Shown one piece after another: positions 9,471 through 41,184 of a DNA stretch of 64,000 nt; the first letter of the stretch is position 1, and the number at the start of each line of letters is the position of its first letter. The stretch comes from a bacterium (lineage in GTDB: Bacteria > Zhuqueibacterota > Zhuqueibacteria > Zhuqueibacterales > Geothermadaptataceae): NCBI GenBank assembly GCA_024275575.1, contig JAJRYV010000132.1, positions 17 through 64,016 on the forward strand, read 5' to 3'. Under the pieces are notes generated by a model. It saw nothing but the letters and a program-made list of their open reading frames with translations, had not been told where the DNA came from and searched no databases. A program made the translations under genes and the position numbers.

Positions 9471-9898
9471 CGTTCCTTAATCGTTTGTTTGACTTTCCAA
9501 TTTTAATCATTCCCGAGCATACGGGCCGAAAGCGTAAAAAATAAGGTATGCACAGTTGAAATTCAAGTCTTTTGTCGTGTTAAGAAGTATCTGAACAGAA
9601 CTATTTCCCGGTAAAGCGGATTTCGCCTGCTGCCGCTGTTTGGCGCAGACAACGATCCACGGACACTTGCCCGGATCATTGAAAATAAATTCCCGTGTAT
9701 TTGTAAAAAGCACCGAAAAAAGATACATGCACTTGAATATACGTGCAGAGAAACTCATCCTGGGCAAAGTGAATATGAGAGGATTAATTGCAGGGCTTAA
9801 CTTAGGTTTTTAAGATAGTTAAAAGTGTAGCCTCCGGCTGAAAAAATAAACCTGTTGAATCAGCTATTCTCGTTCTTGCCGGTGCGCACGGTGCTGAT

Positions 9899-11224
9899 TC
9901 AGTTTTTATCTATTTCCTGTTCCTGCACATAAATTTCATGAATTATATCATTCAACAAGGTGATGAAAATACGAAAGCTTTCGTCTGCTATGAGTTTCTC
10001 TTTTATCAGTTCGCGAAATGCTTTATCACGCAGCCGCTTGAGATCGAGAATGGCGTTGATACATTCCTTCCGGGAATCGTAATAGGGGATTTGGCGCTCA
10101 AGACGCAAAACTTTCTCATAATATTTATCGATGCGGTTCTTGCCTTTGCGCCGCCGCCAGGTCACGACAGTCGAAACGAACCCGATCAAGGCAACGAGCA
10201 TTGAAAACGATAATGCAATCGTCTCTGCCCAGCGCTCGATAAATGTCGGTTTATTGCGCTCAAGGTATTGTTTTGCTCCGGGATGTAACGGGAAGCGCAA
10301 ATTGGAAGCGAGAAAATTCTCGGAAAACTGGCTGATGAGCTCGTTATCGTGGCTGCTAGCCATATGTTGTTTGTGTTCGATAATCGTTTTAATAATGTCG
10401 TAAACCACATCATTTTCAATCTCTTTATGGGACAACAATACCGCGTCCACAGCTGCTGTGAGAATCGGCTGATCCGGTTTTTTCGCATAAGTGTGGCGCG
10501 GCACAATATAAGGTCGTGCGAGTGGATAATTGAGGCAGAAACCATCGATTGCAGAACCCGCTTGCGCCAGGACGGGATCGCCAGGGCTGAAAATTTTGCC
10601 CCCGCTATTCAGTAAATTTTTGATGCGATCATTGTTAAATCCCGTTAAAAGACAAACGACGTCGACGGTGTCGGAAAAAACATTCTCTTCAAAACTGCGG
10701 TAAAGCGGTGTATATGCCTGACGATCGATGCCGAATTCCTGAAAAAACGCACCGGCAAACTTTGAGATGCCGCTGGTCTCCGGCCCCAGCCCGATATTGC
10801 GCCCGGTGATCAGCGCTGACAAAGATTTTGGTTGTAGCTCTTTTTTATAGATGATAAAAAAAACCTGAGGGTAAAGCGGCAAAATGCTGCGAATACCATT
10901 TTCAATTTCGGTTCCGGTGCTATCGATTCGCTTCGGTAGCGTCACATCATTTTGTGTAATGATGAAATCGACCTTGCGTCCATAGAGCAAAGCAAGATTT
11001 TCAACAGCATTGAGTTGTCTGATGCCGGGATATTGTGAGATGGTTGCCAAATGAATGTTATTTTCACGCTCAACAGCTTGTGAAATCACTTCGCCGATAT
11101 CAAAATAGGAGGTGGATGCAGGTCCGGTAGCGAAACGAAAATGCCGATCGCTGCGTGAACAGGCGCCGATTAGCAGCAGCACGAGGACGCACACCATCGA
11201 TTTTAAAACTTGCTTTTTTCCCAA
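9899..11224 (-). CDS. TAXI/PhnD-like periplasmic solute-binding lipoprotein with an extra C-terminal TM helix and cytoplasmic tail
   Basis: 441-aa ORF with a lipoprotein-type signal (LLLIGAC). The N-terminal block FRFATGPASTSYFDIGEVISQAV...VDFIITQND resembles TAXI-family TRAP receptors. A TM segment (IALSFSMLVALIGFVSTVV) followed by RRRKGK lies near the C-terminus. Confidence 0.5.
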   Translation of the reverse strand: MGKKQVLKSMVCVLVLLLIGACSRSDRHFRFATGPASTSYFDIGEVISQAVERENNIHLATISQYPGIRQLNAVENLALLYGRKVDFIITQNDVTLPKRIDSTGTEIENGIRSILPLYPQVFFIIYKKELQPKSLSALITGRNIGLGPETSGISKFAGAFFQEFGIDRQAYTPLYRSFEENVFSDTVDVVCLLTGFNNDRIKNLLNSGGKIFSPGDPVLAQAGSAIDGFCLNYPLARPYIVPRHTYAKKPDQPILTAAVDAVLLSHKEIENDVVYDIIKTIIEHKQHMASSHDNELISQFSENFLASNLRFPLHPGAKQYLERNKPTFIERWAETIALSFSMLVALIGFVSTVVTWRRRKGKNRIDKYYEKVLRLERQIPYYDSRKECINAILDLKRLRDKAFRELIKEKLIADESFRIFITLLNDIIHEIYVQEQEIDKN

Positions 11225-12072: not shown

Positions 12073-12323
12073 ATGCCCATTCCATGAATAAATACGACAT
12101 TCCCAATGTTCATATTATACAAAAATAGCACAAGATCAGCAAATTAAAATATTTCTGTAACAGGATTGTCAACGCAGTGTGCAAATTCTGTAGTTGTTAA
12201 AACTACAAATTTCCGGCAAAATCTTTTTTTTTCTTAAAATTTATGCTTAAAATAACCAGAACCGATTATCGTATTTTTTTAGCCAGCATGATTTACTGAT
12301 AAAAACCATGGTTGAGGGTGTTA

Positions 12324-13331
12324 ATGTCTAAATATTTTCCCATTTTTTCAATTTTAATCGTTTTCGGAATCTCGCAGTTTGCCTGTTCAAAAACCGCACG
12401 CAAACCTGAACCAACCGGAAAGCTGACCATTTGCGAACGCTGCAGTGAACCCATCGCGGGAAAATACATTGTTGCCTTAAATCACAATTGGCATCAGGAA
12501 CATTTCCGTTGCGCTTCATGCGGTAAAAACCTGGTAGGAAAAGGTTATTTTGAAAAAAACAATAAAGCCTATTGTCGGGATTGTTATCACGAAAAATTCA
12601 GTTCTAAATGTGCCATTTGCAAGCAACCGCTATCGGATAAGTACACCCGTGATGCCTGGGGTTATAACTTTCACTCCCGCCACCTCAACGAACTACAGCC
12701 CTGTTTCAGTTGTGCCCGCCTGATCAGCAAAAATATCACCAATGGCGGCAAGAAATATCCTGACGGCCGCAATATGTGCAACATCTGTACAAAGACGGCT
12801 GTGAGTTCACCGGCCAAAGCACAAAAATACTTTTCCCGCCTCAAACGGTTTATGACCAGGCGTGGCTTAAAGTTACCAGCTGGCGAATTCCCGCTCTTTC
12901 TGGTTGATATGTCGGTGTTGCGCAACAGCAATCCCGGTAAAATGGATGTCGCCGGGCGCACGGAGAAAGCCTCATATGAGATAAACGGTGTGGAGAAATC
13001 GCGGCGCATCGAAAAAATGCAAATTCTCGAGGGCCTGCCGGTGGAACATTTTATCGCTATCGCAGCACACGAATTCGGGCATTCCTGGTTATTTCTCAAT
13101 CGTTATCCACATCTCGAATTACAGGTTGAAGAAGGCCTGTGCGAGCTTTTTGAATACTTATGGCTGAAAACACAAAATACCGAAATTGCCCGGTTCAGGA
13201 TCAAAAAAATGAAAATAGGGAAAGACCACATCTATGGCACCGGGTTTCGCAAAGCCCTCACAGCCTACAATAAATACGGTCTCAGCCGGTTGCTGATCGA
13301 AGTTAAACGACAGAAAAGATTTCCCCGATAG
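12324..13331 (+). CDS. LIM-domain / DA1-like zinc metallopeptidase protein
   Basis: Start moved to ATG 12324 (MSKYFPIFSILIVFGISQFAC, one hydrophobic N-terminal segment). A canonical LIM signature CxxC-x16-HxxH-xx-CxxC-x17-CxxC begins at codon 12432. A second LIM-like Cys/His block follows. The C-terminus reads GLPVEHFIAIAAHEFGHSWLFLNRYPHLELQVEEGLCELFEYLWL, which closely parallels the plant DA1 peptidase motif (HEMMHAW...VEEGICQV). HEFGH lies at 13068-13082. Confidence 0.8.
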   Translation: MSKYFPIFSILIVFGISQFACSKTARKPEPTGKLTICERCSEPIAGKYIVALNHNWHQEHFRCASCGKNLVGKGYFEKNNKAYCRDCYHEKFSSKCAICKQPLSDKYTRDAWGYNFHSRHLNELQPCFSCARLISKNITNGGKKYPDGRNMCNICTKTAVSSPAKAQKYFSRLKRFMTRRGLKLPAGEFPLFLVDMSVLRNSNPGKMDVAGRTEKASYEINGVEKSRRIEKMQILEGLPVEHFIAIAAHEFGHSWLFLNRYPHLELQVEEGLCELFEYLWLKTQNTEIARFRIKKMKIGKDHIYGTGFRKALTAYNKYGLSRLLIEVKRQKRFPR

Positions 13332-24119: not shown

Positions 24120-24734
24120 ATGGCGGAAAGCAGAATGGACAAATTCGAAACTAAGCTGGTACAAAAGGCACAAGCCGGCGACCACAGCGCGTTCGAAAAA
24201 CTCGTACAGCAGCACGACCTGCGCGTCTATCAGCTCGCTTTCGGTGTTCTCGGCAATGTACACGATGCGCAGGATATTTATCAGGAAGTCTTTTTGCGCG
24301 CCTGGTCAAAAATCGGGACGTTTTCCTTTAGCGGGCCATTTGCCGCATGGTTAAACCGTATCACTGTAAATCTTTCCATCAACCGCCTGCGGCAAAAGCA
24401 ACACTGGAGATGGTTTGATATTTCCGAGCGCAACCCTGAAAATGAAACGCAGGAAACTTTCTGGTGTCATTCTGACCCGGCGCCAAACCCCGAGAGACTG
24501 GCCATCTCAGCTGAAATCGGACAGCAGGTTCAAGCTGCTCTCGAAGAATTGCCGGCAAAGCAGCGAGCCATCTTTATTATGAAACATTTTCACGGCTTAA
24601 AAATCAGCGAAATATCCCACTCGCTCGATTGCGCCGAGGGCACCGTGAAAAATCAACTATTTCGTGCAACCCGGAAACTTAAAAATCATTTCAGCCGAAT
24701 TTATGACGAAAAACTCAACCCCAATCTCAGGTAA
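24120..24734 (+). CDS. ECF-type RNA polymerase sigma-70 family factor
   Basis: Region 2 (AFEKLVQQHDLRVYQLAFGVLGNVHDAQDIYQEVFLRAW, WLNRITVNLSINRLR) and region 4 (LPAKQRAIFIMKHFHGLKISEISHSLDCAEGTVKNQLFRATRKL) are present. Confidence 0.88.
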   Translation: MAESRMDKFETKLVQKAQAGDHSAFEKLVQQHDLRVYQLAFGVLGNVHDAQDIYQEVFLRAWSKIGTFSFSGPFAAWLNRITVNLSINRLRQKQHWRWFDISERNPENETQETFWCHSDPAPNPERLAISAEIGQQVQAALEELPAKQRAIFIMKHFHGLKISEISHSLDCAEGTVKNQLFRATRKLKNHFSRIYDEKLNPNLR

Positions 24735-24738
24735 TAAT

Positions 24739-25731
24739 ATGGGCACCTGCAACTTTAATCGAGAGAATATTACGCTCTATTTCTACGATGAATTAGCTGT
24801 ACTACAGCGCGTCGAACTGCAGGATCATCTGAACCGCTGTACCGCCTGCATGGAAGAGTTTCTTGCAATGCAACGACTGCTCAACAAAATCCCGCAACAG
24901 CCGCCGGTACAGCCCGATTCCGCAACTTTAGATTTACTGCGCAACCTCATCTCCCTGCAAATCAGGAAAAGGCAGCCAGAATTCCCCAGGCTGCGCGGTA
25001 TTTTTACATTTATCCAACCCAGGCCTGCTTTTCAATGGGGGTTTGCTGTACTATTGCTGACACTTGGTTTTTTCATCGGCAAATCAACGGCGACAAACTC
25101 AGCAGGTGCGGTACAGCAGACTTTGGGCAGACTGCTGGCAGCTCAGCAGGACATCACGACAGGCAATGCCGTCATCAGTCCGTTTTTATTGGGTATTGAA
25201 CGCATCAATTACGATGCCGCTACCGGTAAAATTGAAATCGCTTACAACACCATCAACGATATTCGTTTGCGCAGCGCCACCGGCGATCGCAAAGTGCATG
25301 CATTGCTGCAAATGGCGATGTTGGAAGCGGAGGATTATGCCGTACGTTTGCAGGCAGTTAAAACTGTGAATGCACTCGCTGCGGTCGAACCACAATTGCT
25401 CGATGCAGCATATCTACAGGTTTTCAGCCAACTTTTAAATTCTGAAAGTAATCTCGGCTTGCGGCTGCAAGTTTTGCAAATATTCAAAAATATGCCCTGG
25501 AGCAGGGAAATCAAATCGATATTGCAAAATATACTGTTGAATGATCAGGACAATGCTTTGCGAATCGCAGCGTTTCGCACGATAACCGAACACGAAAAAC
25601 CCACCGTGAAAATACGCGACCTGCTCACAGCAGCAAAAAACGATTCATCGACATTTATAAAATACCGGGCGAACAAATTGCTTGAAGAGTTGAAAAATAG
25701 TGAAAGTATTCCCCTGCGAAAAGAGGATTAA
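24739..25731 (+). CDS. Anti-sigma factor (zf-HC2 N-terminus, one TM, HEAT-like periplasmic region)
   Basis: ATG 24739 lies 4 nt after the sigma gene stop. The HxxxCxxC motif is DHLNRCTACMEEF and the TM is FAVLLLTLGFFIG. The C-terminal helical repeats resemble HEAT repeats (ALRIAAFRTI). Confidence 0.6.
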   Translation: MGTCNFNRENITLYFYDELAVLQRVELQDHLNRCTACMEEFLAMQRLLNKIPQQPPVQPDSATLDLLRNLISLQIRKRQPEFPRLRGIFTFIQPRPAFQWGFAVLLLTLGFFIGKSTATNSAGAVQQTLGRLLAAQQDITTGNAVISPFLLGIERINYDAATGKIEIAYNTINDIRLRSATGDRKVHALLQMAMLEAEDYAVRLQAVKTVNALAAVEPQLLDAAYLQVFSQLLNSESNLGLRLQVLQIFKNMPWSREIKSILQNILLNDQDNALRIAAFRTITEHEKPTVKIRDLLTAAKNDSSTFIKYRANKLLEELKNSESIPLRKED

Positions 25732-25732
25732 C

Positions 25733-26989
25733 ATGAGAGAAACAAGCTGTTTGATAATCATTTTCCTGATGCTGCTCCCGGCATTTTCCACCAGCTCAGC
25801 TCAGGAGATCGAAGAGAAAGATGGCTACTTTTCGGCTGTGACGAGCCATAGTTTCAAAGTTGAAAACGGCGGCCGTTTAACCGTTCGTGTAACCAACGGC
25901 CGCTTCACCATCGACGGATGGAACCGGCAGGAGGTCAAAATCGAAGAAACAGTACGGTTAGATGTCTATTCGCGCGAGGAAGCGGAACGACAGCTTACAC
26001 ACAGCAAAACGGAATACGAACATTATGGCGCCAATGTTAATATTTTACGCCGAGGCGGCAGCCGTGCGCTTTTCCGTTTTTATGATATAAAAGTACCGCA
26101 AAATTATAATATCAAACTAAAAACGAGTTCCGGAGATATCAATGTCTCCGCGGTTTCCGGTGACTTGCAACTGAGCACAACCGGCGGAGACCTGCGGCTG
26201 AAACGATGCAGCGGGACTGTTTCTGCTCGGACTTCCGGCGGGGATATTGAGCTGGAGACGCTGAAAGCGGATGTCGATATCAGCACAGCCGGTGGAAATA
26301 TTATGATAAGCGGCATCGAGGGCAAGCTTGAAGCATCGACTTCCGGCGGTGATATCGAGCTGGAAAACACCACCGGGGCCGTACGCATTCGCACGGCAGG
26401 CGGCGATTTGTTCATTCGCGCTGCGAAAGGCAAAGTTCGCGGCAGTACATCCGGCGGTTCCATTCATGTTGAGGATTGCGGTGATGATGTCAAAATCAGA
26501 ACCAGCGGCGGCAATCTGCGTTTGCGCAATATCGGCGGCGATGTTGACGGGCGAACCAGCGGTGGTGATATCGACGGGACAGACCTGCGCGGTCAGTGTG
26601 ATTTTTCGACATCCGGCGGTGATATCACTGTTCAGGGGTTGCAGGCCGGTATGAAGGGCAGAACCAGCGGCGGCAGCATCGAAGTGGAAATGACGTTAAC
26701 GGATTTTACAATTTCCCATGCAATCGATTTGAATACAGCCAGCGGCCATATTCTTCTGCGCATTCCGGCAAAACTTCCGGCGGATATTTACGCAGAAATC
26801 CGCCTCGATCGCGGTATTCGCCGCTGGGGGAAGCGCCGGGATATTTACAGTGATTTCCCATTAACAAAAGCGACGAATAATGAAGGACGCCGCAAAGTTC
26901 TGATCAGCAAAGGACGGATTAACGGCGGCGGCGATTCGATTTTTCTGAGCACCTCCAACGGCGATATCATTATCGAAAAATTAAAGTAA
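25733..26989 (+). CDS. DUF4097-family beta-helix repeat protein (putative adhesin / LiaG-like), paralogue 1
   Basis: ATG 25733 follows the anti-sigma stop and a signal peptide is present. About 10 repeats of the T[ST]GGDI-x-[LV] unit occur at roughly 19-20 aa periodicity. Confidence 0.7.
   Translation: MRETSCLIIIFLMLLPAFSTSSAQEIEEKDGYFSAVTSHSFKVENGGRLTVRVTNGRFTIDGWNRQEVKIEETVRLDVYSREEAERQLTHSKTEYEHYGANVNILRRGGSRALFRFYDIKVPQNYNIKLKTSSGDINVSAVSGDLQLSTTGGDLRLKRCSGTVSARTSGGDIELETLKADVDISTAGGNIMISGIEGKLEASTSGGDIELENTTGAVRIRTAGGDLFIRAAKGKVRGSTSGGSIHVEDCGDDVKIRTSGGNLRLRNIGGDVDGRTSGGDIDGTDLRGQCDFSTSGGDITVQGLQAGMKGRTSGGSIEVEMTLTDFTISHAIDLNTASGHILLRIPAKLPADIYAEIRLDRGIRRWGKRRDIYSDFPLTKATNNEGRRKVLISKGRINGGGDSIFLSTSNGDIIIEKLK
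26117..26690 (+). repeat. Intragenic tandem beta-strand repeats (about 57-60 nt period)
   Basis: Recurrent ACTTCCGGCGG(T/G)GATAT(C/T)-type units encode TSGGDI. Coordinates are approximate. Confidence 0.7.
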
Positions 26990-31059: not shown

Positions 31060-32103
31060 ATGCTGCGTATTCTGCTCTGGCCGCTCTCTCTTCTCTACCT
31101 TACCGTAATTTTCATACGGAATAAACTATACGACACATCCATCTTCAAGTCATTTAAAATCAATTCGTTAGTCGTAAGTATCGGCAATATCAGCGTCGGC
31201 GGCACCGGCAAAACCCCGGTGATAATAGCGCTGGCAGAACTGTTGCGCTCAAAAGGTAAAAAAGTGGCGATATTATCGCGTGGATACGGCCGGAAATCAC
31301 GCGGTGTGGTAATCGTTTCCCATGGGCGGGGGCCGGCGTGCAAAGTTGAAATAGCCGGTGATGAGCCGTTTTTGCTAGCGACAGAATTGCCCGATATTCC
31401 CTTCGTTGTCGCCGAGAACCGGATCGCGGGAGCGAGAGAGCTTTGCCGTCTTTTCGCCCCAGAAATCATTTTACTGGATGACGGCTTCCAGCACCGAAAA
31501 ATAAAGCGCGACCTCGATATTGTTTTGATCGATTCAAAACGGTTGCTGTATAACAAAAGCCTGCTACCTGCCGGGCCCTATCGTGAGGGGCTGAGAAGTT
31601 TGCGAAGAGCGCATTTTATTTTGCCGGTTAATTGCTGTGCCGGGCAGATAATTGTCATGAAAATTCTTTGCAAGAAAACAGCAGCCTCACTGTATCCCAC
31701 CGATATAAATTCTCAGCAGCTCACCTTACCCAACAGCGGCACAACCGCAGGGATGCAATTATTGCGACATAAAAAAGTGCTGGTATTTTGTGGCATTGGC
31801 CAACCGGAAAAACTGCGGGAAACACTCCGCCAGGCAGGAGCGGAGATCATCGCATTCATGACATTTCCCGATCATTTTGATTATCAGGAAGAGGATCTCG
31901 ATAAGTTAATAAGCAAATTTAACAACTCTTCGGCAGAACTGATTATCAGCACTGCAAAAGATTGGGTTAAGATTAAGAATCACAAAGGCTTCAGGCAAGT
32001 GCCGGTTTGTCTTCCAGATCATAAAGCGAAGCTGTCGGATGAATTCATTAGTGCATTTCTCCAGTGGCTGCAAATAAGCGTAACAAACGATTGCCACAGA
32101 TAA
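31060..32103 (+). CDS. lpxK: Tetraacyldisaccharide 4'-kinase
   Basis: P-loop VVSIGNISVGGTGKTP, then ILSRGYGRKS, GDEPFLLA and LLDDGFQH. Confidence 0.85.
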   Translation: MLRILLWPLSLLYLTVIFIRNKLYDTSIFKSFKINSLVVSIGNISVGGTGKTPVIIALAELLRSKGKKVAILSRGYGRKSRGVVIVSHGRGPACKVEIAGDEPFLLATELPDIPFVVAENRIAGARELCRLFAPEIILLDDGFQHRKIKRDLDIVLIDSKRLLYNKSLLPAGPYREGLRSLRRAHFILPVNCCAGQIIVMKILCKKTAASLYPTDINSQQLTLPNSGTTAGMQLLRHKKVLVFCGIGQPEKLRETLRQAGAEIIAFMTFPDHFDYQEEDLDKLISKFNNSSAELIISTAKDWVKIKNHKGFRQVPVCLPDHKAKLSDEFISAFLQWLQISVTNDCHR

Positions 32104-32136
32104 AACCGGGATAAAATTCAGGAAAACAAATACTTC

Positions 32137-32165
32137 TTGCAAGACTATTTGTAATTTTGTATAAT
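32137..32165 (+). promoter_or_regulatory. Sigma-70-type promoter candidate upstream of the EBP gene
   Basis: TTGCAA (32137-32142), 17-nt spacer, TATAAT (32160-32165). Confidence 0.45.
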
Positions 32166-32307
32166 ATTCGAGGTTTTTTTAAATATATTTCAATCCCTGA
32201 TCTGCATTGAGGCACATATAATCTACTTATTTTACAGGGAGCACCAAAACGTCGATAACCTGATATAAATAACCTCTGTACTCTATATTTAACGTGGAGC
32301 CTTCCTG

Positions 32308-33687
32308 GTGAGTAGCAATCTGAAGTACTCCATCCTCGTCGTGGACGATGACAAAAATATCGCCAAAATGATTGAGATCAACCTGCGCAAGACCAGGTTG
32401 TATGATATCAAAACGGCAAGTAGTGGCGAAGCCTGCCTGAAGATGATCCGCGAAGAAATTCCGGACTTGGTTCTTCTTGATATTCAGATGCCCGGCATCG
32501 ACGGTATCGAAACGCTAAAACGCATTCGTGACTTTGATCCCCGCATTCCGGCAGTGATGATGTCAGCACACGGTTCCATCGAAAAAGCAGTGCAATCGAT
32601 GAAGCTCGGTGCACACGATTTTATTTCCAAACCCTTTGCCAGCGACCGCCTGCTGGTCACGGTCAAAAATGCGATCATAACCAGCTCCTTACAAAAAGAG
32701 GTGGATACCTTGCGCAGCGAATTGCGCAGCCGCTTCAATTTTGGCAACATCGTCGGGCACAGCGGTAAAATGCAGGAAGTTTTTCGTTCCCTTGAAAAAA
32801 TTATTGAAAGCAATATCACCGTGCTCATCCACGGCGAAAGCGGCACCGGTAAAGAACTCATCGCCCGCGCCATTCATTTTCAGAGCAAAAAACGCTCCGG
32901 CAAACCCTTTGTTGCAGTGAACTGCTCCGCCCTGCCCGACTCCTTGCTTGAAAGCTAACTTTTCGGTCATGAAAAAGGCGCTTTTACCGGGGCCTCCGGA
33001 AAACGTATGGGTAAATTTGAGGCTGCCAACGGCGGCACCATTTTCCTCGATGAAATCGGTCTGATGTCACAAATGACACAATCGAAATTGCTGCGGGTTT
33101 TGCAGGAACGTGAGTTTGAACGTGTCGGCGGTAACGAACTTGTTAAAGTCGACGTCCGGGTTATTTCCGCCACCAATGTCGACCTTGAGGAAGCGGTTAA
33201 AAAAGGCGCCTTCCGGGAAGATTTGTACTATCGCATCTCCGTATTTCCAATTGTTCTGCCGGCCTTGCGCGAGCGCAAGGAAGATATCCCGCTTCTCGCC
33301 GCACACTTCCTGGAAAAATATACGAAGCAGGAAAACAAGGAAATCGACGGCATCGCACCGGACGCACTGGAATTGCTGATATCCTATAGCTGGCCCGGCA
33401 ACGTGCGCGAGCTGGAAAACGCTATTGAACGTGCTATTTTAATGGCCAGCACCAACGATATCTCACCAAAAGATTTGCCGAATTCAATCCGCGCAATCGG
33501 TGAGAAACGCATTATCGAAAAAGATTCAACATTATCAAGCTGGATCGAAAAACTGGAAGAGGAAGCGTTGAAACAGGCCTTGCTTGAATGCGAAGGCAAT
33601 ATTTCACAAACGGCAAAAAAACTCGGTATCGGCCGTGCAACGATCTACCGCAAAGCGAAAAAATACGGCTTACCGATGATCAAATAA
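32308..33687 (+). pseudogene. NtrC-family sigma-54-dependent response regulator (REC-AAA+-Fis HTH) interrupted by one in-frame TAA
   Basis: GTG start. The REC domain has a canonical acceptor (DLVLLDIQMPGIDG) and Walker A is GESGTGKE. The translation reads ...ALPDSLLES, TAA (32956-32958), then in the same frame [12 protein letters not shown]...[10 protein letters not shown]...RVISATN...REDLYYR...and the Fis-type [27 protein letters not shown]. Confidence 0.85.
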
Positions 33688-33710
33688 ATTGCCCCCATCT
33701 TTAATTTTCA

Positions 33711-33743
33711 AAAAGCCGGTATTTTTGAATACCGGCTTTTTTT
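33711..33743 (+). terminator. Rho-independent terminator after the EBP gene
   Basis: GCCGGTAT (33715-33722) pairs with ATACCGGC (33729-33736) across the loop TTTTGA. It is followed by T7 and preceded by A4. Confidence 0.7.
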
Positions 33744-33891
33744 GTTACAAACTGAACTGTTTTGCTACAGTATATTCTCAGGTTGAAACAGTTTGTCTCC
33801 TTTTCCAACCCCTTAATTCTCATCGCTTAGACCGGCAAAAAGACGACTCTCAGGCAACGGATGTTTCACCGGACTATTTCAAAATGAAACA

Positions 33892-33907
33892 TGGTATAGC
33901 GTTTGCA
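33892..33907 (+). promoter_or_regulatory. Sigma-54 (-24/-12) promoter candidate
   Basis: TGGTAT-AGCGT-TTGCA has the GG and GC dinucleotides at the canonical spacing of TGGCAC-N5-TTGC. It lies about 58 nt upstream of ATG 33965. Confidence 0.55.
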
Positions 33908-33964
33908 TAAATACGTTCGATAATTAATCCACGGGGCGATAACATTAACCAGAGAACAACACGA

Positions 33965-35077
33965 ATGAAAATGACAAATCTAGGTATTCTCATACCGAAA
34001 ATCTGCGACAGTACGTACTCCCAATCCGATTTGTATCAATTTGTAAACTTGGTCCAAAAGATTTCCCTCAGCTATTTAAAATACCAGGAAGTTATTGGAA
34101 AACACATTCGGTGGGAAAGACGCGAAAGAAATTCAGAATTGGAAGATATGGCCATCGATTGTGTAGCCGGGCTTTTCATGCGTAACGATGAAAATGAGTT
34201 TGTCCAGCTCAAACGCTATTTTGAACCCCATCTTGCCGGGATACCGGCCCCTGATGATGAAGAATTGTTGATTCTCTTGCGGCGCCTGGCCATCAAAAAA
34301 ACCAAACAGGAACTTTCACGCATATTCAAAGAAAGAGACCCTGAAGGTGCAAAAATTATCCGCAACATCCGCGTCGCAGTTAAAAACTCAAATGATTTCG
34401 GTACATTCAAAGAAATGGGACGCGAGTATATATTTTTCCAACCGGCCGTTTTTGCCCCGGCGAATGATTGCGCAAATACACCCGTGCACACCGTTGGTGA
34501 AGACGAAATTCCGGATGACGAATACTTGCGCCGTGAACAGCCGGTCATCCCGGAAAAAACATTGCGAGATCTTTATCTTGAAAACTACACTCCAAAAGAT
34601 CATGTTTCGACCAGCATTCGTAAAATGCTCAAAGTCACTACGGAAGAAGAAAAATTCATGAACTGCCTGCCGACAGATGCCATTGCCCGGCTTATTCGCT
34701 ATACCAATTTCGAAGTTGTTCGTTCAAAACTGATTTCACAAATCGCGGTTGATTCCCCTCTCGATTATGTGCGCATGAAAGAAATCGAAGAGGCCAAACG
34801 CAATGTACTGGTAAAAATCAAATCGAAAATTCAGGTGCAATACGTCCACTCAAATAAAATCAGTCCGGAAAAAGGCGATATCTATTACCGCACGCTCGCA
34901 GATGTGCTCGATGACATCACCCACAACAAAAAGATAGAAAGTTACTACCGCCACCTGCGGAAATATGTCCCGGAACTGACCCAGAAGCAATATCGCAGCG
35001 ACGAGCGCACTATATTCGAATATCTCGGCAAACTCACCAAAAAGTGGTTTCGTGAATATCTCAAAGATTTACTTTGA
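33965..35077 (+). CDS. Hypothetical protein (N-terminus faintly sigma-70 region-2-like)
   Basis: 370-aa ORF directly downstream of the -24/-12 promoter. I recognise no family. ELEDMAIDCVAGLFMRND...LLILLRRLAIKKTKQELSRIF is vaguely like ECF sigma region 2. Confidence 0.55.
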   Translation: MKMTNLGILIPKICDSTYSQSDLYQFVNLVQKISLSYLKYQEVIGKHIRWERRERNSELEDMAIDCVAGLFMRNDENEFVQLKRYFEPHLAGIPAPDDEELLILLRRLAIKKTKQELSRIFKERDPEGAKIIRNIRVAVKNSNDFGTFKEMGREYIFFQPAVFAPANDCANTPVHTVGEDEIPDDEYLRREQPVIPEKTLRDLYLENYTPKDHVSTSIRKMLKVTTEEEKFMNCLPTDAIARLIRYTNFEVVRSKLISQIAVDSPLDYVRMKEIEEAKRNVLVKIKSKIQVQYVHSNKISPEKGDIYYRTLADVLDDITHNKKIESYYRHLRKYVPELTQKQYRSDERTIFEYLGKLTKKWFREYLKDLL

Positions 35078-35152
35078 TTTTGCACGCAAGATTATGTATG
35101 TTCAACGCAGGATACAGTATTCTAAGGACATGCATAATCTTTGTGTGATTGG

Positions 35153-35416
35153 ATGGATTCTTCTTACCAAGCCAGGCGATTTCAAATTAGCTGCCCCGAT
35201 TCTGACGTCATCGAAAAAATCCTGCTCCAGGCCTACAAACACCGCGTACTCATGCAGGTTTTCGAGGAGCATCTCATCACATGCTCAAGATGCCGGAAAA
35301 CCGTCGACCGTATCCGCATATATTATGAAATACTGGAAGCGGAAATGAAAAAACCTGTATCCGCGACAGTCATCAAATTTGCGGATTCTCTCAGCCTGGG
35401 AAGAAAAAAATCATAA
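35153..35416 (+). CDS. Small HxxxCxxC (zf-HC2-like) protein, no TM segment
   Basis: 87-aa ORF from ATG 35153. FEEHLITCSRCRKTVDRI matches the H-x3-C-x2-C pattern of zinc-binding anti-sigma factors, and an additional upstream Cys is present (ISCPDSD). Confidence 0.4.
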   Translation: MDSSYQARRFQISCPDSDVIEKILLQAYKHRVLMQVFEEHLITCSRCRKTVDRIRIYYEILEAEMKKPVSATVIKFADSLSLGRKKS

Positions 35417-35567
35417 GATATTCCCCTACAGAAAATCGATTCATCACCTCCTTTTGATACCTGTCGAAGGCCGTCACCCTTTTTCTCTTGACTGATGCTG
35501 ATAATTTTGCTTAATTGGGATATTTAAGCTCAAATTTTAATAATAATTGATCGATAACAGCAAAGAA

Positions 35568-38030
35568 ATGATGCAAGATCTGAAAATTCTCGTTGTAGAT
35601 GCCGACCCGAAAAATCTGCAAATCCTGAAAGAATCTTTCGAAGCCGCCGGCTTTGCCATCGATACTGCTATCGATGGCGAAAAAGCCTGGCAAATTCTCG
35701 ATTCATCCCTGCCGGATCTCATCCTTTCTGAAGTCAATTTACCCGAACATGACGGCTTTCAATTCTTACAGAAATTGAAGCAAAATCCTGCCACTGCACA
35801 AATCCCCGTTGTTTTTCTCACCAACAGACGTGATTTGCAGGACAGAGTCCGTTCGCTGCGCGGTGGTGTAAAAGATTACCTCATCAAACCTGTTCACGTA
35901 AAAGAAGTCATCGCTCGCATCCGTATGATTCTACGACGGCTTGAAAGGGTGAAAAATGAAGAGCAGGATGCTGTCAATAAAGTGGTCGGCAGGCTGGAAG
36001 AATCCGGCGTCATCGAACTCATCGAAAATTTTGGTGTTGAGCGACGCAGTGGCATTTTGAATATTTATAACGAAAACAATAAAAATGGCGAAATCCACTT
36101 CCGTGGCGGCAGTATCGTCTACGCCTCTCTTGGCATGCTCAAAGCCGAAAAAGCAATTTATCAAATGCTACCTTGGAAATGTGGTCATTACATCATCACA
36201 TTCAAAGAAGTGAATACCGCTGATTCCATTTCAGTGAGCAATCTCGGTCTGCTGTTGCAGGGTTTCAAACGTCTTGAAGAGCGTGAACGGCTGATTAAAC
36301 AACTACCGTCTCTCGAAACGACCTTCGTGCTTTCCAAGCCGTTTCAGCAAATTATTTCCCGCAAAGAGCTGGCAGGCGACGTCGCAAAATTTCTCAACCT
36401 GATCAACGGCAAGCGAGATATTCAGCAAATCATCGACGAAAGTATTTACGAGGACATCAAATCGCTCGAACGTTTAGTCAAACTTTCAAGCCAGGGATTC
36501 ATCATTCCCGGCAGCGGCCAGGAGGATGAAACGCCGCAAATAAAAATCAGCGGCACCGGCGAGCCTGAGCCGATCAAGGAATTGCCGCTTCCCGAACATG
36601 TCACCGAATCGCTGAAAAACCCGGAAATGAAAACGGAAAAGGCAAAATCACCTGAAAATCCCCACACTGTTCAACCACCGACAGACGATGACAGGCACTT
36701 GCCGGATTCCGTTGATCAACGGCCATTGGCCAAACCGGTTTTGAACGAACCGGATAAATATGTTGAAGACGATGATTTCTCGGCAAAAATCGATGACAAC
36801 GCTGCGGCAGAAACAAGAGAAATGCGCATTCCATCAAAGCCACCGAAAAATTTTCCGTTATTAAATGGTTTCGATTCTGATAAAGAGGAAGAGCAAACAG
36901 ATGATTTCCCGGCTGCTTCCGAAGAACCGGGAACGGATGCCCCGCCCATGCCCATGGAATTGAAAGGTTTTGCGCCGGATACTGATATCTTTGAAATCAT
37001 TCAGGAATTGAAAAAAGACCGCGAGCTTTCCGCCGCAACAGCAAAAGCAGCCGCTGACGAAGAGCTACACCGCATCGAACCGCAAGTCAACGGCAATGGA
37101 CACGCGAAAGAAAAACCGGAACTGCCCTCCCCCCATCCTGAACCGGCGAAAGAAAACCTCCCCGGCGAACCATTACCGCCGGATATTGCTTTTTCATTTC
37201 CCAGGCGCAATTATGGATTTACTTTTGCCGATGAAAAAGATGGTGATTCAGGTCAAATTTTATTTGATAAAGATAAATCCACACCATCCGCCGAAGATAT
37301 GCCGGATGGTATCAATGCTGATCTGAATTTATTATCAAACAAATCAGAAATAGACGAATTATCATTCGAACCCGTGGAAAAGCAACCGGCTGAAAGCGGC
37401 AAAGATAAGACGCAGTCCGCACTGTCGATTTTTCCAAACGAGGAAACCGGACCCGAAATAAATGCCGATGATGCCAAATCATTAAACCAGGTATTTCTTG
37501 AATATTTGCCTTTTGCAGAAAATCAACCGGGCACATTTGTCGTCATCGGTGCGACACAAAAAAGCGCTGATCATCTCATTCGAAAAATGTCTAAAGTGAC
37601 TATTCTCCCCTCCGGAGCGGAGAATAGTTTAAGCGTTGGGACGATTGCATTGAACAGCAATCGCTCCTTTAAATTGCTCGCCGTTTCCATGGAGCAACAA
37701 TTCACTCAAATTCTCAACGGTATCCACGATAACCTGACCGGTTTTTTGCTGTTGTTCAATGCAAACGATAAAAGCCGGATAGAATATCTGAGTTATTTGT
37801 ATAATTCACTCAATAAAAAATTTAAATTACCTTCAGGGATCGCAGTTATCGAAGAATCCGACAGTAAATCCCTGGCGCCATCCACGGTTCGAGACCTCAT
37901 CAATGCTGATGAGAGCTATTTTATCACCACTCTCAATCCGGCTCATCTCCAGAATGTAACCGCATTCTTGACAGAAATGCTGCAGCATTATGCGGCACAA
38001 AAAGATCGCGAAAAGCATGAACTGGAATAA
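35568..38030 (+). CDS. Atypical response regulator: receiver with Glu at the acceptor position + DUF4388/PATAN-like domain + ~330-aa acidic/Pro-rich linker + degenerate small-GTPase-like C-terminal domain
   Basis: Numbering is from the ORF-track start at 35547.
- REC: ILVVDAD...PDLILSEVNLPEHDG...VVFLTN...IKP, with GAA at 35730-35732 where the phospho-Asp is expected.
- PATAN-like (~35985-36506): GRLEESGVIELIENFGVERRSGILNIY...GEIHFRGGSIVYA.
- Low-complexity D/E/P/K region: ~36507-37511.
- C-terminal alternating beta/alpha pattern (37530-38027): FVVIGATQKSADHL...FKLLAVSMEQQ...GFLLLFNANDKSRIE...GIAVIEESD. Confidence 0.75.
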   Translation: MMQDLKILVVDADPKNLQILKESFEAAGFAIDTAIDGEKAWQILDSSLPDLILSEVNLPEHDGFQFLQKLKQNPATAQIPVVFLTNRRDLQDRVRSLRGGVKDYLIKPVHVKEVIARIRMILRRLERVKNEEQDAVNKVVGRLEESGVIELIENFGVERRSGILNIYNENNKNGEIHFRGGSIVYASLGMLKAEKAIYQMLPWKCGHYIITFKEVNTADSISVSNLGLLLQGFKRLEERERLIKQLPSLETTFVLSKPFQQIISRKELAGDVAKFLNLINGKRDIQQIIDESIYEDIKSLERLVKLSSQGFIIPGSGQEDETPQIKISGTGEPEPIKELPLPEHVTESLKNPEMKTEKAKSPENPHTVQPPTDDDRHLPDSVDQRPLAKPVLNEPDKYVEDDDFSAKIDDNAAAETREMRIPSKPPKNFPLLNGFDSDKEEEQTDDFPAASEEPGTDAPPMPMELKGFAPDTDIFEIIQELKKDRELSAATAKAAADEELHRIEPQVNGNGHAKEKPELPSPHPEPAKENLPGEPLPPDIAFSFPRRNYGFTFADEKDGDSGQILFDKDKSTPSAEDMPDGINADLNLLSNKSEIDELSFEPVEKQPAESGKDKTQSALSIFPNEETGPEINADDAKSLNQVFLEYLPFAENQPGTFVVIGATQKSADHLIRKMSKVTILPSGAENSLSVGTIALNSNRSFKLLAVSMEQQFTQILNGIHDNLTGFLLLFNANDKSRIEYLSYLYNSLNKKFKLPSGIAVIEESDSKSLAPSTVRDLINADESYFITTLNPAHLQNVTAFLTEMLQHYAAQKDREKHELE

Positions 38031-38052
38031 TTGACATTAACCGACGCGGCGC

Positions 38053-39270
38053 ATGATACGCAAAAAAATTTTTATTGCAGACAATTTCGAACACGAGATC
38101 AGCGAACTGCGCAGCTCCTTAAATGCCGCTGGTTTCGAGGTGCGTATCGTTGCAACCGCTGATAAAATAATGCCTGTAATGCTGCAAGTAAAACCACATT
38201 TAATCATCATTGAAACGCGTATTCCTGATCTTAATTTAAAATCACTACTTGGGCAAATCAAGGAACAGAGTGAATTTACCTTCACGCCTATCGTGCTCAC
38301 CGGTACACCGCGTACGATCGATGAAAAAGTGGAGCTGTTTAAATTCGACATCGATGAATTTATCAGCAAACCGCACGAACCGGAAGAAACGATTGTGCGC
38401 CTGGAAACACTGTTAAAAGAAGCTGAACTGGCACGGCAAAAAGTGCCGGTTACAACAGGCGGTTTTAATGGTTCCCTCGCTGAAATGACGCTCGTCGACT
38501 TGCTGCAGACCCTCGATGTCGGTAAAAAAACCGGTGTGATCACTCTGCGCAACGATGGTAAAGAAGGTTTAACCTATGTGAATAATGGTGAAGTCGTTAA
38601 TGCAGCTCTCGAAAATCTTGAAGCCAAACAGGCGCTATTGCGCATGTTCACCTGGACGCACGGCATGTTTTCCGTAAACATGAAAGCGCATAACGTTGAA
38701 AAACAGATATTTATGACAACACAGGAACTCATTTCTGAAGGAATAACACGGCAATACCGCTGGAAAAAACTATCCGGTGACATGCCCCCATTGCAGACGG
38801 TGGCACAAAAAATAACTCCGTTATTGTTAGATTTGAATAAGGATGAAATCCTCATTGCCGAGATGATTGACGACAAATCGCGCCTTATCGATATCATCGA
38901 AAGGAGCCCCTTCGATGACATTAAAGCACTGCGGATTTTAAAAAAGCTCTATGAGCGATCGGTGATCAAAGGTATCGAAAATTCGTTTAATAAAACCAGA
39001 GATGAAGCGGCATCTTTACTCGATTACACCACAACTTCACAACCGCCAGGGCGAATTGAGAATGCCTTTGCAAAAATTTTGAAGCATACGACTGAATCTC
39101 TTACCATGCCGAACTTCGACCGGCGGAAATCAGACCGCCGTATGGAGAACCGGACAGAAACCGACAGACGGCATGGCTATCGCTCGCACCCGGGCAATAT
39201 TTGCCTGAAAAAAAGCGAGCTAATCATGCTGCGCAATAAATTAATCGCTGAAATTCAACACTCATCTTAA
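38053..39270 (+). CDS. Atypical response regulator: receiver with Glu at the acceptor position + DUF4388/PATAN-like domain + Arg-rich tail
   Basis: The REC-like N-terminus is IFIADNFE...PHLIIIETRIPDLN...IVLTG...ISKP, with GAA at 38212-38214 at the acceptor position. The PATAN-like block (~38458-38976) is GSLAEMTLVDLLQTLDVGKKTGVITLRNDGKEGLTYVNNGEVVNAA. The tail is RRKSDRRMENRTETDRRHGYRSH. It is a paralogue of the preceding gene. Confidence 0.75.
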   Translation: MIRKKIFIADNFEHEISELRSSLNAAGFEVRIVATADKIMPVMLQVKPHLIIIETRIPDLNLKSLLGQIKEQSEFTFTPIVLTGTPRTIDEKVELFKFDIDEFISKPHEPEETIVRLETLLKEAELARQKVPVTTGGFNGSLAEMTLVDLLQTLDVGKKTGVITLRNDGKEGLTYVNNGEVVNAALENLEAKQALLRMFTWTHGMFSVNMKAHNVEKQIFMTTQELISEGITRQYRWKKLSGDMPPLQTVAQKITPLLLDLNKDEILIAEMIDDKSRLIDIIERSPFDDIKALRILKKLYERSVIKGIENSFNKTRDEAASLLDYTTTSQPPGRIENAFAKILKHTTESLTMPNFDRRKSDRRMENRTETDRRHGYRSHPGNICLKKSELIMLRNKLIAEIQHSS

Positions 39271-39282
39271 ACGGTTGCAGGA

Positions 39283-39756
39283 ATGCGAATCGGAGAAATC
39301 GCCGTTGTCGGCGCTGATGACGAGGACAGGAACCAATTTCTCAAGTCAATATGCGGCCCTGTCGAGACGATAAACCAAAATATCAGTTTCGGCAGGTATC
39401 GGATCAATGAGCAATTGCTGATCCATTTTTACGGGATATATCCGCAGGATGACCAGTTATCCCTCGACCTGATTTCACGGAAACTATTAGGCTATATCGT
39501 TCTTTTTCGCTGGGGAAATGTCAATTCATTTCGCCAGGCGCAGAAATTTGTCGATACATTCACACAGCGCTATGGTGCCAACGTCGTTGTCGCCGGCCAG
39601 GTTGAAAACAGCCAACCGCGTATGCCGAAAGAATTCGAATCCGGCATCCCCATCGACAAACAAGGCGTTTTTGCTTTTTGTGACATCAACGAGGGTAAGA
39701 GTGTGCGCAAAGTAATACTGGCTCTTGTTGATCAAATCATCGATCAGACAAAATAA
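39283..39756 (+). CDS. Small Ras/MglA-sized protein with degenerate nucleotide-binding motifs (putative pseudo-GTPase)
   Basis: 157-aa ORF 13 nt after the previous stop. The beta1-loop reads EIAVVGADDEDRNQF where GxxxxGK[ST] is expected. LLIHFYGIY sits where DxxG is expected, VVVAGQVEN where NKxD is expected, and AFCDINEGKSV where SAK is expected. The fold assignment is inferred from the secondary-structure-like pattern only. Confidence 0.45.
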   Translation: MRIGEIAVVGADDEDRNQFLKSICGPVETINQNISFGRYRINEQLLIHFYGIYPQDDQLSLDLISRKLLGYIVLFRWGNVNSFRQAQKFVDTFTQRYGANVVVAGQVENSQPRMPKEFESGIPIDKQGVFAFCDINEGKSVRKVILALVDQIIDQTK

Positions 39757-39813
39757 GTTTTAGCCCCCACATTTTATTCCCCTGTTTTATCATTTTTTTA
39801 ATGGAGCATAACC

Positions 39814-41184
39814 ATGCAAGCCCAAATTTTGCCGTCGATTCTCGAAGCAATCGGCTCGACCCCGCTCGTGCAGTTGAATAAAGTCACAGGAGATATCAAA
39901 GCCCGGGTTTTGGCAAAAGTGGAATATTTCAACCCCGGTGGTTCGGTGAAAGATCGCATCGCCATGCGCATGATCGAAGCAGCCGAAAAAAACGGCACGT
40001 TGAAACCGGGTGGCACGATCGTCGAAGCCACCTCGGGAAATACCGGCGCCGGACTGGCGATTATCGCTGCAGTGAAAGGCTACAAAGCGATATTCACGAT
40101 GGCGGATAAAATGAGCAACGAAAAAATCCGTTTGCTCAAAGCCTACGGCGCAGACGTCATCGTTTGCCCGACTGCAGTGCCCGCCGATTCACCAAAAAGT
40201 TACTACTCGGTTGCCAAAAAAATCGTTCAGGAAACGCCGAATGCCATTCTTGCCAATCAGTATTTCAATCCGAAAAATCCCGAGGCCCACTATTGGAGCA
40301 CCGGCCCGGAAATCTGGCAACAGACCGGTGGTAAAATCGATTATTTTGTTGCCGGTATCGGCACCGGCGGCACGATCAGTGGCACGGCAAAATATCTGAA
40401 AGAACAAAATCCGCATATTAAAATAATTGGCGCCGACCCTGACGGCTCCATTTTAAAAGATTATTTTTACACCAAAAAAATCGTCAAAGATCATCCTTAT
40501 AAAGTCGAAGGCGTGGGTGAAGATATTTTACCCGGCACTCTTGATTTCAGCCAGATCGATGAGGTGATCATGAAAAATGACAAGCAATGTTTTCAGGCCG
40601 CGCGCAAACTCGCGCGCCTCGAAGGCATTTTCACCGGCGGTTCAGCCGGCCTCGCACTGGCCGTTGCCCTGGATGTCGCTGCAGAACTGGCGGCGGATAA
40701 AACCGTCGTCGTTTTGCTGCCGGATACCGGTGAACGTTATCTTTCAAAATTTTATAATGATGAATGGATGCGCGAAAACCGTTTTCTCGATATTGTCGAA
40801 TCCACAGTCGGTGAAATTCTCGACGTCAAACCCGGCACGCTTTCCCCTGTTTTGAGCGTGTCCAGCGAGACCAGCATTCGGGATGCGTTGAAAATCATGA
40901 ACCAGAACAATGTATCACAACTACCCGTCGTCGATACCGGAGAATCCACCGGCAGCATCGAAGAAGGCCAGCTGATGGCAAAACTTTTTGAAAATCAGGA
41001 ACGCATCGACGGATTAGTACGCGAGGTGATGGAAAAACCCTTTCCCATGCTTTCGGTATACGACCGGCTGGAAAAGGCAAAAGCACTTTTTGCCAAAAAA
41101 TATCCGGCGATTCTCGTTGAACAAAACGGTGAAATCCGCGGCATCATCACCAAATCGGATATCATTTCCTTCATCGCAACTTAA
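39814..41184 (+). CDS. Cystathionine beta-synthase (PLP domain + tandem CBS domains)
   Basis: NPGGSVKDRIA (PLP Lys), TSGNTGAGLA and GIGTGGTISG. The C-terminal CBS pair includes VSQLPVVD and GIITKSDII. Confidence 0.85.
   Translation: MQAQILPSILEAIGSTPLVQLNKVTGDIKARVLAKVEYFNPGGSVKDRIAMRMIEAAEKNGTLKPGGTIVEATSGNTGAGLAIIAAVKGYKAIFTMADKMSNEKIRLLKAYGADVIVCPTAVPADSPKSYYSVAKKIVQETPNAILANQYFNPKNPEAHYWSTGPEIWQQTGGKIDYFVAGIGTGGTISGTAKYLKEQNPHIKIIGADPDGSILKDYFYTKKIVKDHPYKVEGVGEDILPGTLDFSQIDEVIMKNDKQCFQAARKLARLEGIFTGGSAGLALAVALDVAAELAADKTVVVLLPDTGERYLSKFYNDEWMRENRFLDIVESTVGEILDVKPGTLSPVLSVSSETSIRDALKIMNQNNVSQLPVVDTGESTGSIEEGQLMAKLFENQERIDGLVREVMEKPFPMLSVYDRLEKAKALFAKKYPAILVEQNGEIRGIITKSDIISFIAT

Follow-up and report, generated by a model that had tools for sequence, protein, structure and literature searches.

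MglA-family GTPases and PATAN regulators serve in cell polarity, motility and differentiation, and they act by cycling between chemical states. Receivers with Glu at the acceptor position (pseudo-receivers) are known from the plant pseudo-response regulators and from Chlamydia ChxR. Likewise, the eukaryotic pseudoGTPases CENP-M and the pG domains of p190RhoGAP have lost their nucleotide motifs and play scaffold or interaction roles. Here we describe a bacterial locus where pseudo-receivers and pseudo-GTPases stand side by side. It lies in a 64-kb stretch of DNA from a bacterium of the KSB1/Calditrichota group. This whole stretch is called the window. The block of interest occupies positions 32308-39756 on the plus strand. 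A first-pass annotation had drawn seven same-strand units here, and all seven were recovered: an activator, a promoter and the five genes listed below. In this list, G* stands for a degenerate GTPase-like domain, and A1 is the profile, or hidden Markov model (HMM), of the p157 family.

33965..35077, plus strand: p370, an all-alpha orphan, very highly conserved, with no Pfam, NCBIfam or PDB sequence match.
35153..35416, plus strand: the small protein, an 87-aa Cys/His protein with the motif C-x26-H-x3-C-x2-C (ZAS-like, after the zinc-binding anti-sigma factors); its ATG is at 35153.
35547..38030, plus strand: the long protein (827 aa), with pseudo-receiver (Glu62), PATAN, helical region, acidic Pro-rich linker and pseudo-GTPase; probable ATG at 35568.
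37530..37991, plus strand: the G* domain at the C-terminus of the long protein (residues 664-794 by the A1 HMM; also by hhalign against the p157 family).
38053..39270, plus strand: the short protein (405 aa), with a degenerate pseudo-receiver (Glu54), PATAN, helical region and Arg-rich C-terminal tail (Pfam REC and DUF4388).
39283..39756, plus strand: p157, a stand-alone pseudo-GTPase of MglA-family descent, 157 aa (AlphaFold2 (AF2) model with Foldseek; profile searches).

The nearest relatives of p157 and of the long-protein C-terminus are the MglA-family GTPases (Groups 2-5, with a GTPGQ switch II, including the conservon protein CvnD). They share the Ras-like fold, as modelled for p157 and as found by hhalign for the long protein. 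In contrast, the G* domains of the window block have lost G1, G2, G3 and G4. The block also differs from MglA systems in that one G domain is fused to REC-PATAN and a sigma-54 promoter stands in front. Compared with Myxococcus MglA/MglB/RomR, it has neither an MglB/Roadblock partner nor a linked motility gene. The receiver, the Pro-rich acidic linker and the C-terminal domain of the long protein recall RomR. In PMC4316618, which cites Makarova et al. 2006, PATAN genes are neighbours of MglA/MglB genes. This known trait of MglA/MglB systems is seen here too.

The cyanobacterial PatA-type regulators (PatA, PixG, PixE, LsiR) also combine REC and PATAN in one protein. However, their order is PATAN-REC, and in the window proteins it is REC-PATAN with the acceptor fixed as Glu. 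The window proteins add helical, linker, G* and Arg-rich tail regions, and no chemosensory or pilus genes are nearby. With the plant and ChxR pseudo-receivers they share the receiver fold with Glu for Asp, and in the long protein the Thr, the Lys and the remaining acidic residues of the pocket are still there. The outputs and partners are different: in the window, two paralogous pseudo-receivers stand beside pseudo-GTPases. Unlike the eukaryotic pseudoGTPases, G* is of independent bacterial origin, from the MglA family; the searched literature offered no counterpart of them in bacteria. In cyanobacteria, PATAN alone suffices as output, and orphan PatA-type regulators that have lost the phosphorylation residues work without phosphorylation (bioRxiv 10.1101/2021.06.11.447907).

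The first-pass annotation knew of no described module that pairs two pseudo-receiver-PATAN proteins with two pseudo-GTPase domains under sigma-54 control. Likewise, in the searched literature we found neither this block nor any MglA-derived pseudoGTPase of bacteria described. More precisely, four elements were found undescribed there: a family of pseudoGTPases that derives from MglA, the fusion of this family to REC-PATAN, the pairing of a fused and a split version, and the attachment to a sigma-54-driven orphan pair. The claim of novelty needs one correction, since the PATAN-MglA gene neighbourhood is already documented (PMC4316618). What is new is the consistently inactivated state and the architecture.

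p157 has no match in Pfam or NCBIfam. Its AF2 model, built from an alignment of 28 homologues, has a mean predicted local distance difference test score (pLDDT) of 85.6 and a predicted TM-score (pTM) of 0.86. In a Foldseek search of the PDB with this model, each of the best 50 matches is either a Ras-superfamily GTPase or a complex that includes one, with E from 4e-8 and TM of 0.62-0.75. The A1 profile, run against PDB sequences, reached Rab3B at 1.5e-4. The Ras/MglA-type fold, and thus a P-loop NTPase fold, proposed for this protein from its size is therefore what the model, the structure search and the profiles all return. An exhaustive search of 1.84 billion representatives gave 394 relatives of p157. 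The best 56 representatives are all without a P-loop. Many of the weaker relatives (1e-8 to 1e-15) carry GxxxxGKT, GTPGQ and NKxD, and match Pfam ATP_bind_1, Arf, Ras or Roc. This signature is that of MglA-family Groups 2-5 (PMC4316618). In the alignment, the GKT, the Thr-bearing switch I insert, the GTPGQ and the NKxD are all gone from p157.

The C-terminus of the long protein had also been called GTPase-like, and profile comparison agrees. Its last 185 residues, aligned from 35 orthologues, match the p157 family by hhalign with a probability of 98.8% (E 8e-17, 148 columns). The A1 HMM also matches the long ORFs (open reading frames) of many p370 loci. This domain has S-x-E-QQF where the relatives have GTPGQ-RF. 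A search with the alignment of the long C-terminal domain gave two matches only and was uninformative.

The loss of the nucleotide motifs, first read from the window alone, extends to the orthologues. Walker A (GxxxxGK[ST]) was looked for in three sets, 33 p157 orthologues, 28 family members and 35 long C-terminal domains, and occurs in none of them. The PGQ of switch II is absent in all the members of these three sets. NKxD is found in none of the p157 orthologues (0/33) or family members (0/28) and in 1/35 long domains, where it is incidental and outside the G4 position. The window domains read VGADDEDRNQF and IGATQKSADHL at the P-loop positions. At the aligned switch II positions, p157 has HFYGIY and the long domain AVSMEQQF; at the G4 positions, the two domains have VVAGQVEN and IAVIEESD. 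Other residues are invariant: R2, E5, H48, Y50, D62 and W77 in p157, and S73, E75, Y106, Y109 and R141 in the long domain. Both G* domains are conserved pseudo-GTPases, not decaying genes. Judged by sequence and predicted fold, they plainly descend from MglA-type GTPases.

Two further observations concern related domains. Protein P0212 was considered as a REC-PATAN-GTPase that still has its P-loop. It proved to be of the TIR/STAND type, and the P-loop is part of its STAND domain. P0220, P0234, P0259, P0260, P0275 and P0292, from the exhaustive search, are HEAT-MglA-like fusions, and several of them begin with a TIR domain. The P-loop of these fusions is degenerate (for example VTGPSAFLRRQF), and most retain a switch II of the GxPG(Q/E) type. 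They seem to represent another lineage of MglA-like domains that lack a P-loop, independent of G*.

The REC-PATAN assignment of the 827-aa and 405-aa proteins holds in Pfam, with both domains above the cut-off in both proteins (30.2 bits for REC, PF00072; 25 bits for DUF4388/PATAN, PF14332). In the long protein, REC covers residues 14-126 (6e-24, 84.7 bits) and DUF4388 residues 148-246 (3.5e-11, 43.6 bits). In the short protein, REC scores 4.7e-9 (36.8 bits) and DUF4388 4.7e-19 (69.0 bits). DUF4388/PATAN is likewise annotated in orthologues. The replacement of the phospho-acceptor Asp by Glu, reported before for both window receivers (codons 35730-35732 in the long gene and 38212-38214 in the short one), is a family trait. 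All the long receivers have Glu at the acceptor (40/40). The rest of their active site is retained: T92 and K114 never vary, and the Asp is kept at D18 and at D20 in 39/40 each. The short receivers have Glu in 31/34, Asp in 2/34 and Val in 1/34, and their other catalytic positions are degenerate. G* and the receivers do not qualify by their motifs as functional GTPases or phospho-accepting receivers, yet they plainly descend from both.

Other regions of these two proteins have a marked composition. The linker of the long protein (residues 331-655, 325 residues) contains 12.6% Pro and 22.5% Asp+Glu, with a net charge of -38. The Arg-rich tail of the short protein (nt 39106-39267) reads ERRRxDRR-x-DRR followed by LNKSELLMIREKL, a feature that most of 33 orthologues share. 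The genes of the long protein, the short protein and p157 (the trio) are closely spaced in the window, with 22 nt between long and short and 12 nt between short and p157. Short gaps or overlaps are also seen in loci L001, L004 and L005 (related loci are labelled L with a number). In L006, the gaps are 219 and 86 nt.

A p370 profile scan over species-representative genomes gave 55 loci, all in metagenome-assembled genomes (MAGs) of KSB1/Calditrichota. Their ORFs were typed by local HMM searches, and three locus types were distinguished. Type 1 (39 loci) has the full block p370-small-long-short-p157. It is complete in 33/33 loci with a long enough contig, and the orthologous activator is directly upstream in 23 loci. 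The L016-L031 clade of this type has different flanks on both sides and lacks an activator within 8 kb, and the block is still intact. Type 2 (L015, L020, L022) consists of a paralogous p370-small pair on its own. Type 3 (L051-L060, L063) has the activator, a 41-47% identical p370 and a small protein of ~200 aa, without the trio. Finally, L064, an unrelated metagenomic contig of 32.6% GC, carries the trio alone: a long protein with PATAN and G*, a short protein with PATAN, and a G* protein of 155 aa. It has neither p370 nor a -24/-12 element, and the trio stands behind a sigma-70-like region.

The order of the genes is thus not an accidental adjacency. However, the single block drawn in the first-pass annotation has to be qualified. 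Its five genes are conserved together, and the pair and the trio are each also found alone. The block is made of two separable modules: the p370/small pair and the REC-PATAN/G* trio.

Upstream of p370 and after its stop codon, the window has the following elements.

32308..33687, plus strand: NtrC-type sigma-54 enhancer-binding protein (Pfam REC 6e-32, Sigma54_activat, AAA_lid_14 and HTH_8, a Fis-type helix-turn-helix).
33710..33741, plus strand: intrinsic terminator after the activator gene, with a 14-bp stem, a 4-nt loop and a U-run (dG -18.3 kcal/mol, z -6.2).
33892..33907, plus strand: sigma-54 type -24/-12 promoter, TGGTATAGCGTTTGCA, matching TGGYAYN5TTGCW, with GG-N10-GC.
35088..35145, plus strand: hairpin and conserved intergenic element, from p370 to the small gene (dG -23.8 kcal/mol, z -4.55).

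With this canonical activator domain set and the GG-N10-GC promoter, the block resembles the NtrC/sigma-54 cassettes. It differs in the target: p370 fits no known family, and profile comparison gives it no resemblance to sigma factors. The promoter TGGTATAGCGTTTGCA is the sole match to TGGYAYN5TTGCW in the window, with 0.33 expected by chance. Of the 55 loci, 49 have TGGTAT-N5-TTGC ahead of p370, and these span all three locus types; of the 6 loci without it, three are cut by a contig end. An orthologous activator is directly upstream of p370 in 33/55 loci, including the divergent type-3 loci. The sigma-54 control proposed earlier for the whole block is, as judged from this conservation, solidly supported only for p370. 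For the three downstream switch proteins, we infer it. A short motif, ATCCACGGGG, lies at 33925-33935, between the promoter and the start codon of p370. It is retained with variants in several lineages (upstream regions of L001, L004 and L006).

The NtrC-type identity of the activator stands by its Pfam domains and by the GAFTGA loop in the AAA+ domain; its receiver has the Asp acceptor. On the other hand, the gene is not intact, which had been overlooked. It is interrupted by an in-frame TAA at 32956-32958, which splits it into ORFs of 216 aa and 226 aa. The matching codon is GAA or GAG in four relatives, with intact activators of 439-462 aa. Hence, the TAA is either a nonsense mutation peculiar to this window or an error of assembly. 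The strong terminator reported after this gene is there: none of 200 shuffles (0/200) equalled the stability of its 14-bp hairpin, and a U-run follows. An Rfam scan of 31900-40300 gave leader-like matches on this terminator hairpin only, all sub-threshold.

Our preferred reading is that the trio and the p370 pair are co-inherited modules behind one sigma-54 promoter, and that the switch domains are fixed-state and do not cycle. We hold it at about even confidence. Structure, profiles and comparative genomics agree on the core of what had been proposed: dead Ras/MglA-type folds, Glu receivers and PATAN domains behind a sigma-54 promoter. According to this reading, a phosphorylated NtrC-type activator, with the intact Asp receiver seen in relatives, would turn on module A. 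This module, p370 and its small Cys/His partner, would be the conserved sigma-54 target. Module B, the trio, would encode the REC-PATAN/G* unit twice: fused in the 827-aa protein, and split in the 405-aa protein and p157. This fused and split encoding suggests that G* and REC-PATAN interact physically. G* would bind REC-PATAN, and PATAN would be the output surface. The domains of module B may no longer bind nucleotide or cycle, and may act as fixed-state interaction modules or adaptors. Activity would then be set by protein abundance (through the activator and sigma-54 transcription) and by partner binding, instead of GTP or phosphotransfer. Complex formation, a transcript that p370 and the trio would share, and any effect in the cell are proposals of this reading; what was observed are the domain identities, the motif losses, the homology of the two G* domains, the synteny and the conserved promoter.

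A stronger form of this reading goes further. The trio would be a self-contained signalling complex with every classical switch frozen (Glu receivers; a remodelled, often acidic P-loop) and controlled by sigma-54 expression only. It would cooperate with p370 and the small protein, and these two would represent a new kind of factor, for transcription or polarity, that is confined to KSB1/Calditrichota. The whole would be the first signalling system in bacteria to be built on pseudoGTPases. We consider this form improbable as it stands.

Several observations weigh against the preferred reading. The promoter may be silent in this organism, because the window activator is truncated by the TAA, unless that stop is an assembly error. 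The two modules need not work together, since the pair and the trio each occur separately. The 130-nt gap ahead of the 827-aa gene holds a weak sigma-70-like match. This gap, together with the conserved element and the hairpin after p370, leaves room for internal promoters, and the trio may have its own. No linked target, such as type IV pilus genes, was found in any locus examined. Finally, many p157 relatives keep the first Gly of the P-loop and a Lys or Arg (GPxxExK); such residues could line a non-canonical ligand pocket in G*.

Some of these points support the explanation that this is not one system. The p370/small pair would be a sigma-54 regulon member, and the trio an independent unit with its own promoter, adjacent by descent. 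The loci with the pair alone (L015, L020, L022), type 3 with its activator and no trio, and the lone trio of L064 behind a sigma-70-like region are all in line with it. The same applies to the conserved element after the p370 stop, and to the distance between the small and long genes, which reaches about 400-950 nt in some clades. However, order and orientation are held in every one of the long-enough loci, including the L016-L031 clade with its changed flanks and activator position. Moreover, the window has no terminator-like site on the plus strand between the small and long genes. We regard two independent adjacent units as unlikely.

The element after the p370 stop is relevant here. It occupies window positions 35078-35150, with the same position in L009-L063, and reads ATTTTnCGnAAA ... 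GGAG ... TTGTnTGTATATA. Across the three types, most loci have it, and the hairpin is seen in the window lineage. In some loci, it reads as a Shine-Dalgarno sequence with a 3-codon mini-ORF (M/L/V-Y-I-stop), a pattern that is inconsistent across loci. Possible roles of the element are those of an attenuator, a leader or an internal promoter, and it may modulate or restart the expression of the downstream genes.

A second alternative is that G* is still operated by a ligand. Nucleotide or another small molecule would sit in the remodelled pocket, and the domain would cycle with non-canonical chemistry. The family consensus does keep G-x4-x-K/R and a conserved Glu at the P-loop position, and the family-specific invariant residues imply a strong constraint beyond fold maintenance. 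Likewise, the MglA groups with atypical G4/G5 include active GTPases (CvnD9; PMC4316618). Nevertheless, the G1 Ser/Thr, the second P-loop Gly, the GTPGQ, the Thr switch I insert and the NKxD are gone in every member. Nor is there a Roadblock/MglB-type GTPase-activating protein (GAP) in the window or in four annotated related loci: Robl_LC7 matched no window ORF and nothing in L001, L004, L005 and L006. A ligand-operated G* seems to us rather improbable.

The absence of such partners from the window had been claimed before, and the Pfam scans agree. In every other window ORF they gave no histidine kinase, Roadblock, GAP or guanine nucleotide exchange factor (GEF), and no motility gene. These ORFs encode lipid A, envelope, sulfur amino-acid and DNA repair functions, and one ordinary extracytoplasmic function (ECF) sigma factor.

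The 370-aa protein had been assigned to no family, and this remains so after Pfam, NCBIfam and PDB profile searches, none of which gave a match. It has 345 homologues. Identity is 54-100% among the 120 matches listed, and all the named ones come from KSB1/Calditrichota-type MAGs. An alignment of 42 selected homologues shows a mean column identity of 60% and long invariant stretches, one of them a basic helix, LRRLxIKKTKQELSRIFKERDPEGAKIxRNI. A Pfam scan of these 42 members at E <= 10 gave no meaningfully recurring family and no sigma family. The AF2 model consists of helices only (pLDDT 72.8, pTM 0.44). Foldseek of this model against PDB and BFVD returned nothing significant, a fold search limited by the multidomain model with its pTM of 0.44. 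A PspA/IM30-like identity was considered because the psp operon is sigma-54-dependent; it has neither Pfam nor fold support.

The claim of an 87-aa HxxxCxxC protein can be extended to the full motif C-x26-H-x3-C-x2-C, which is kept in the orthologues and in the paralogous pair. A homologue follows p370 in 45/55 loci, and several of the remaining loci are contig-truncated. With the ZAS (zf-HC2) anti-sigma factors it shares HxxxCxxC and the upstream Cys. zf-HC2 is its recurrent best Pfam match. However, this match is below the gathering threshold: E is 0.008-0.19 in 5/6 sequences, with 12-17 bits against a cut-off of 22.2 bits. The partner p370 also differs from that of a ZAS protein in not being sigma-like.

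These features raise a third alternative. p370 would be a very divergent sigma-like or RNA-polymerase-binding factor, the small protein its zinc-binding anti-factor, and the trio partner-switching regulators of the anti-factor. A cascade from sigma-54 to a second factor has a precedent in Rrp2-RpoN-RpoS, and the full ZAS spacing, the conserved pairing of the two proteins and the invariant basic helix of p370 are in its favour. We consider it very improbable, because zf-HC2 stays under its threshold and p370 fails as a sigma factor in every comparison (hhalign probability of 0.1% against ECF sigma factors, no Pfam sigma or PDB profile match, and non-significant Foldseek sigma matches with E 2.8 and TM 0.12).

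Variants of the pair occur elsewhere. In L062 (3494-6394), on a contig labelled Gammaproteobacteria, a p370 homologue stands in frame behind ~600 aa of ~70-residue repeats (FNPxW...RNVR...IDW...LPxxW). In the type-3 loci (L051-L063, about 9200-11100), the Cys/His protein is lengthened to ~200 aa. In L051 and L063, the two loci examined downstream, the next gene encodes a secreted HEAT-like protein (~360-390 aa), in place of the trio.

Two other regions of the window present genes of separate interest. At 12312-13331 (plus strand), a 339-aa bacterial protein combines a LIM domain (1e-18) with a DA1-like peptidase domain (3e-21), a pairing best known in eukaryotes. At 24129-26989 (plus strand), an ECF sigma factor (Sigma70_r2/r4) is followed by a HEAT-repeat protein and then by a DUF4097 'toastrack' protein. 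These genes are probably a separate sigma/anti-sigma unit.

To our knowledge, there is almost no experimental knowledge of the KSB1/Calditrichota group. In this group, p370 and its Cys/His partner are two uncharacterised and very well conserved families that form a core sigma-54 target. A whole lineage keeps its switch folds under strong selection, with the chemistry removed from all four switch domains. If our inference holds, this system would be a bacterial counterpart of the eukaryotic pseudoGTPases and pseudo-response regulators. It would also illustrate how the rewiring of a switch network can leave expression level as its sole control.

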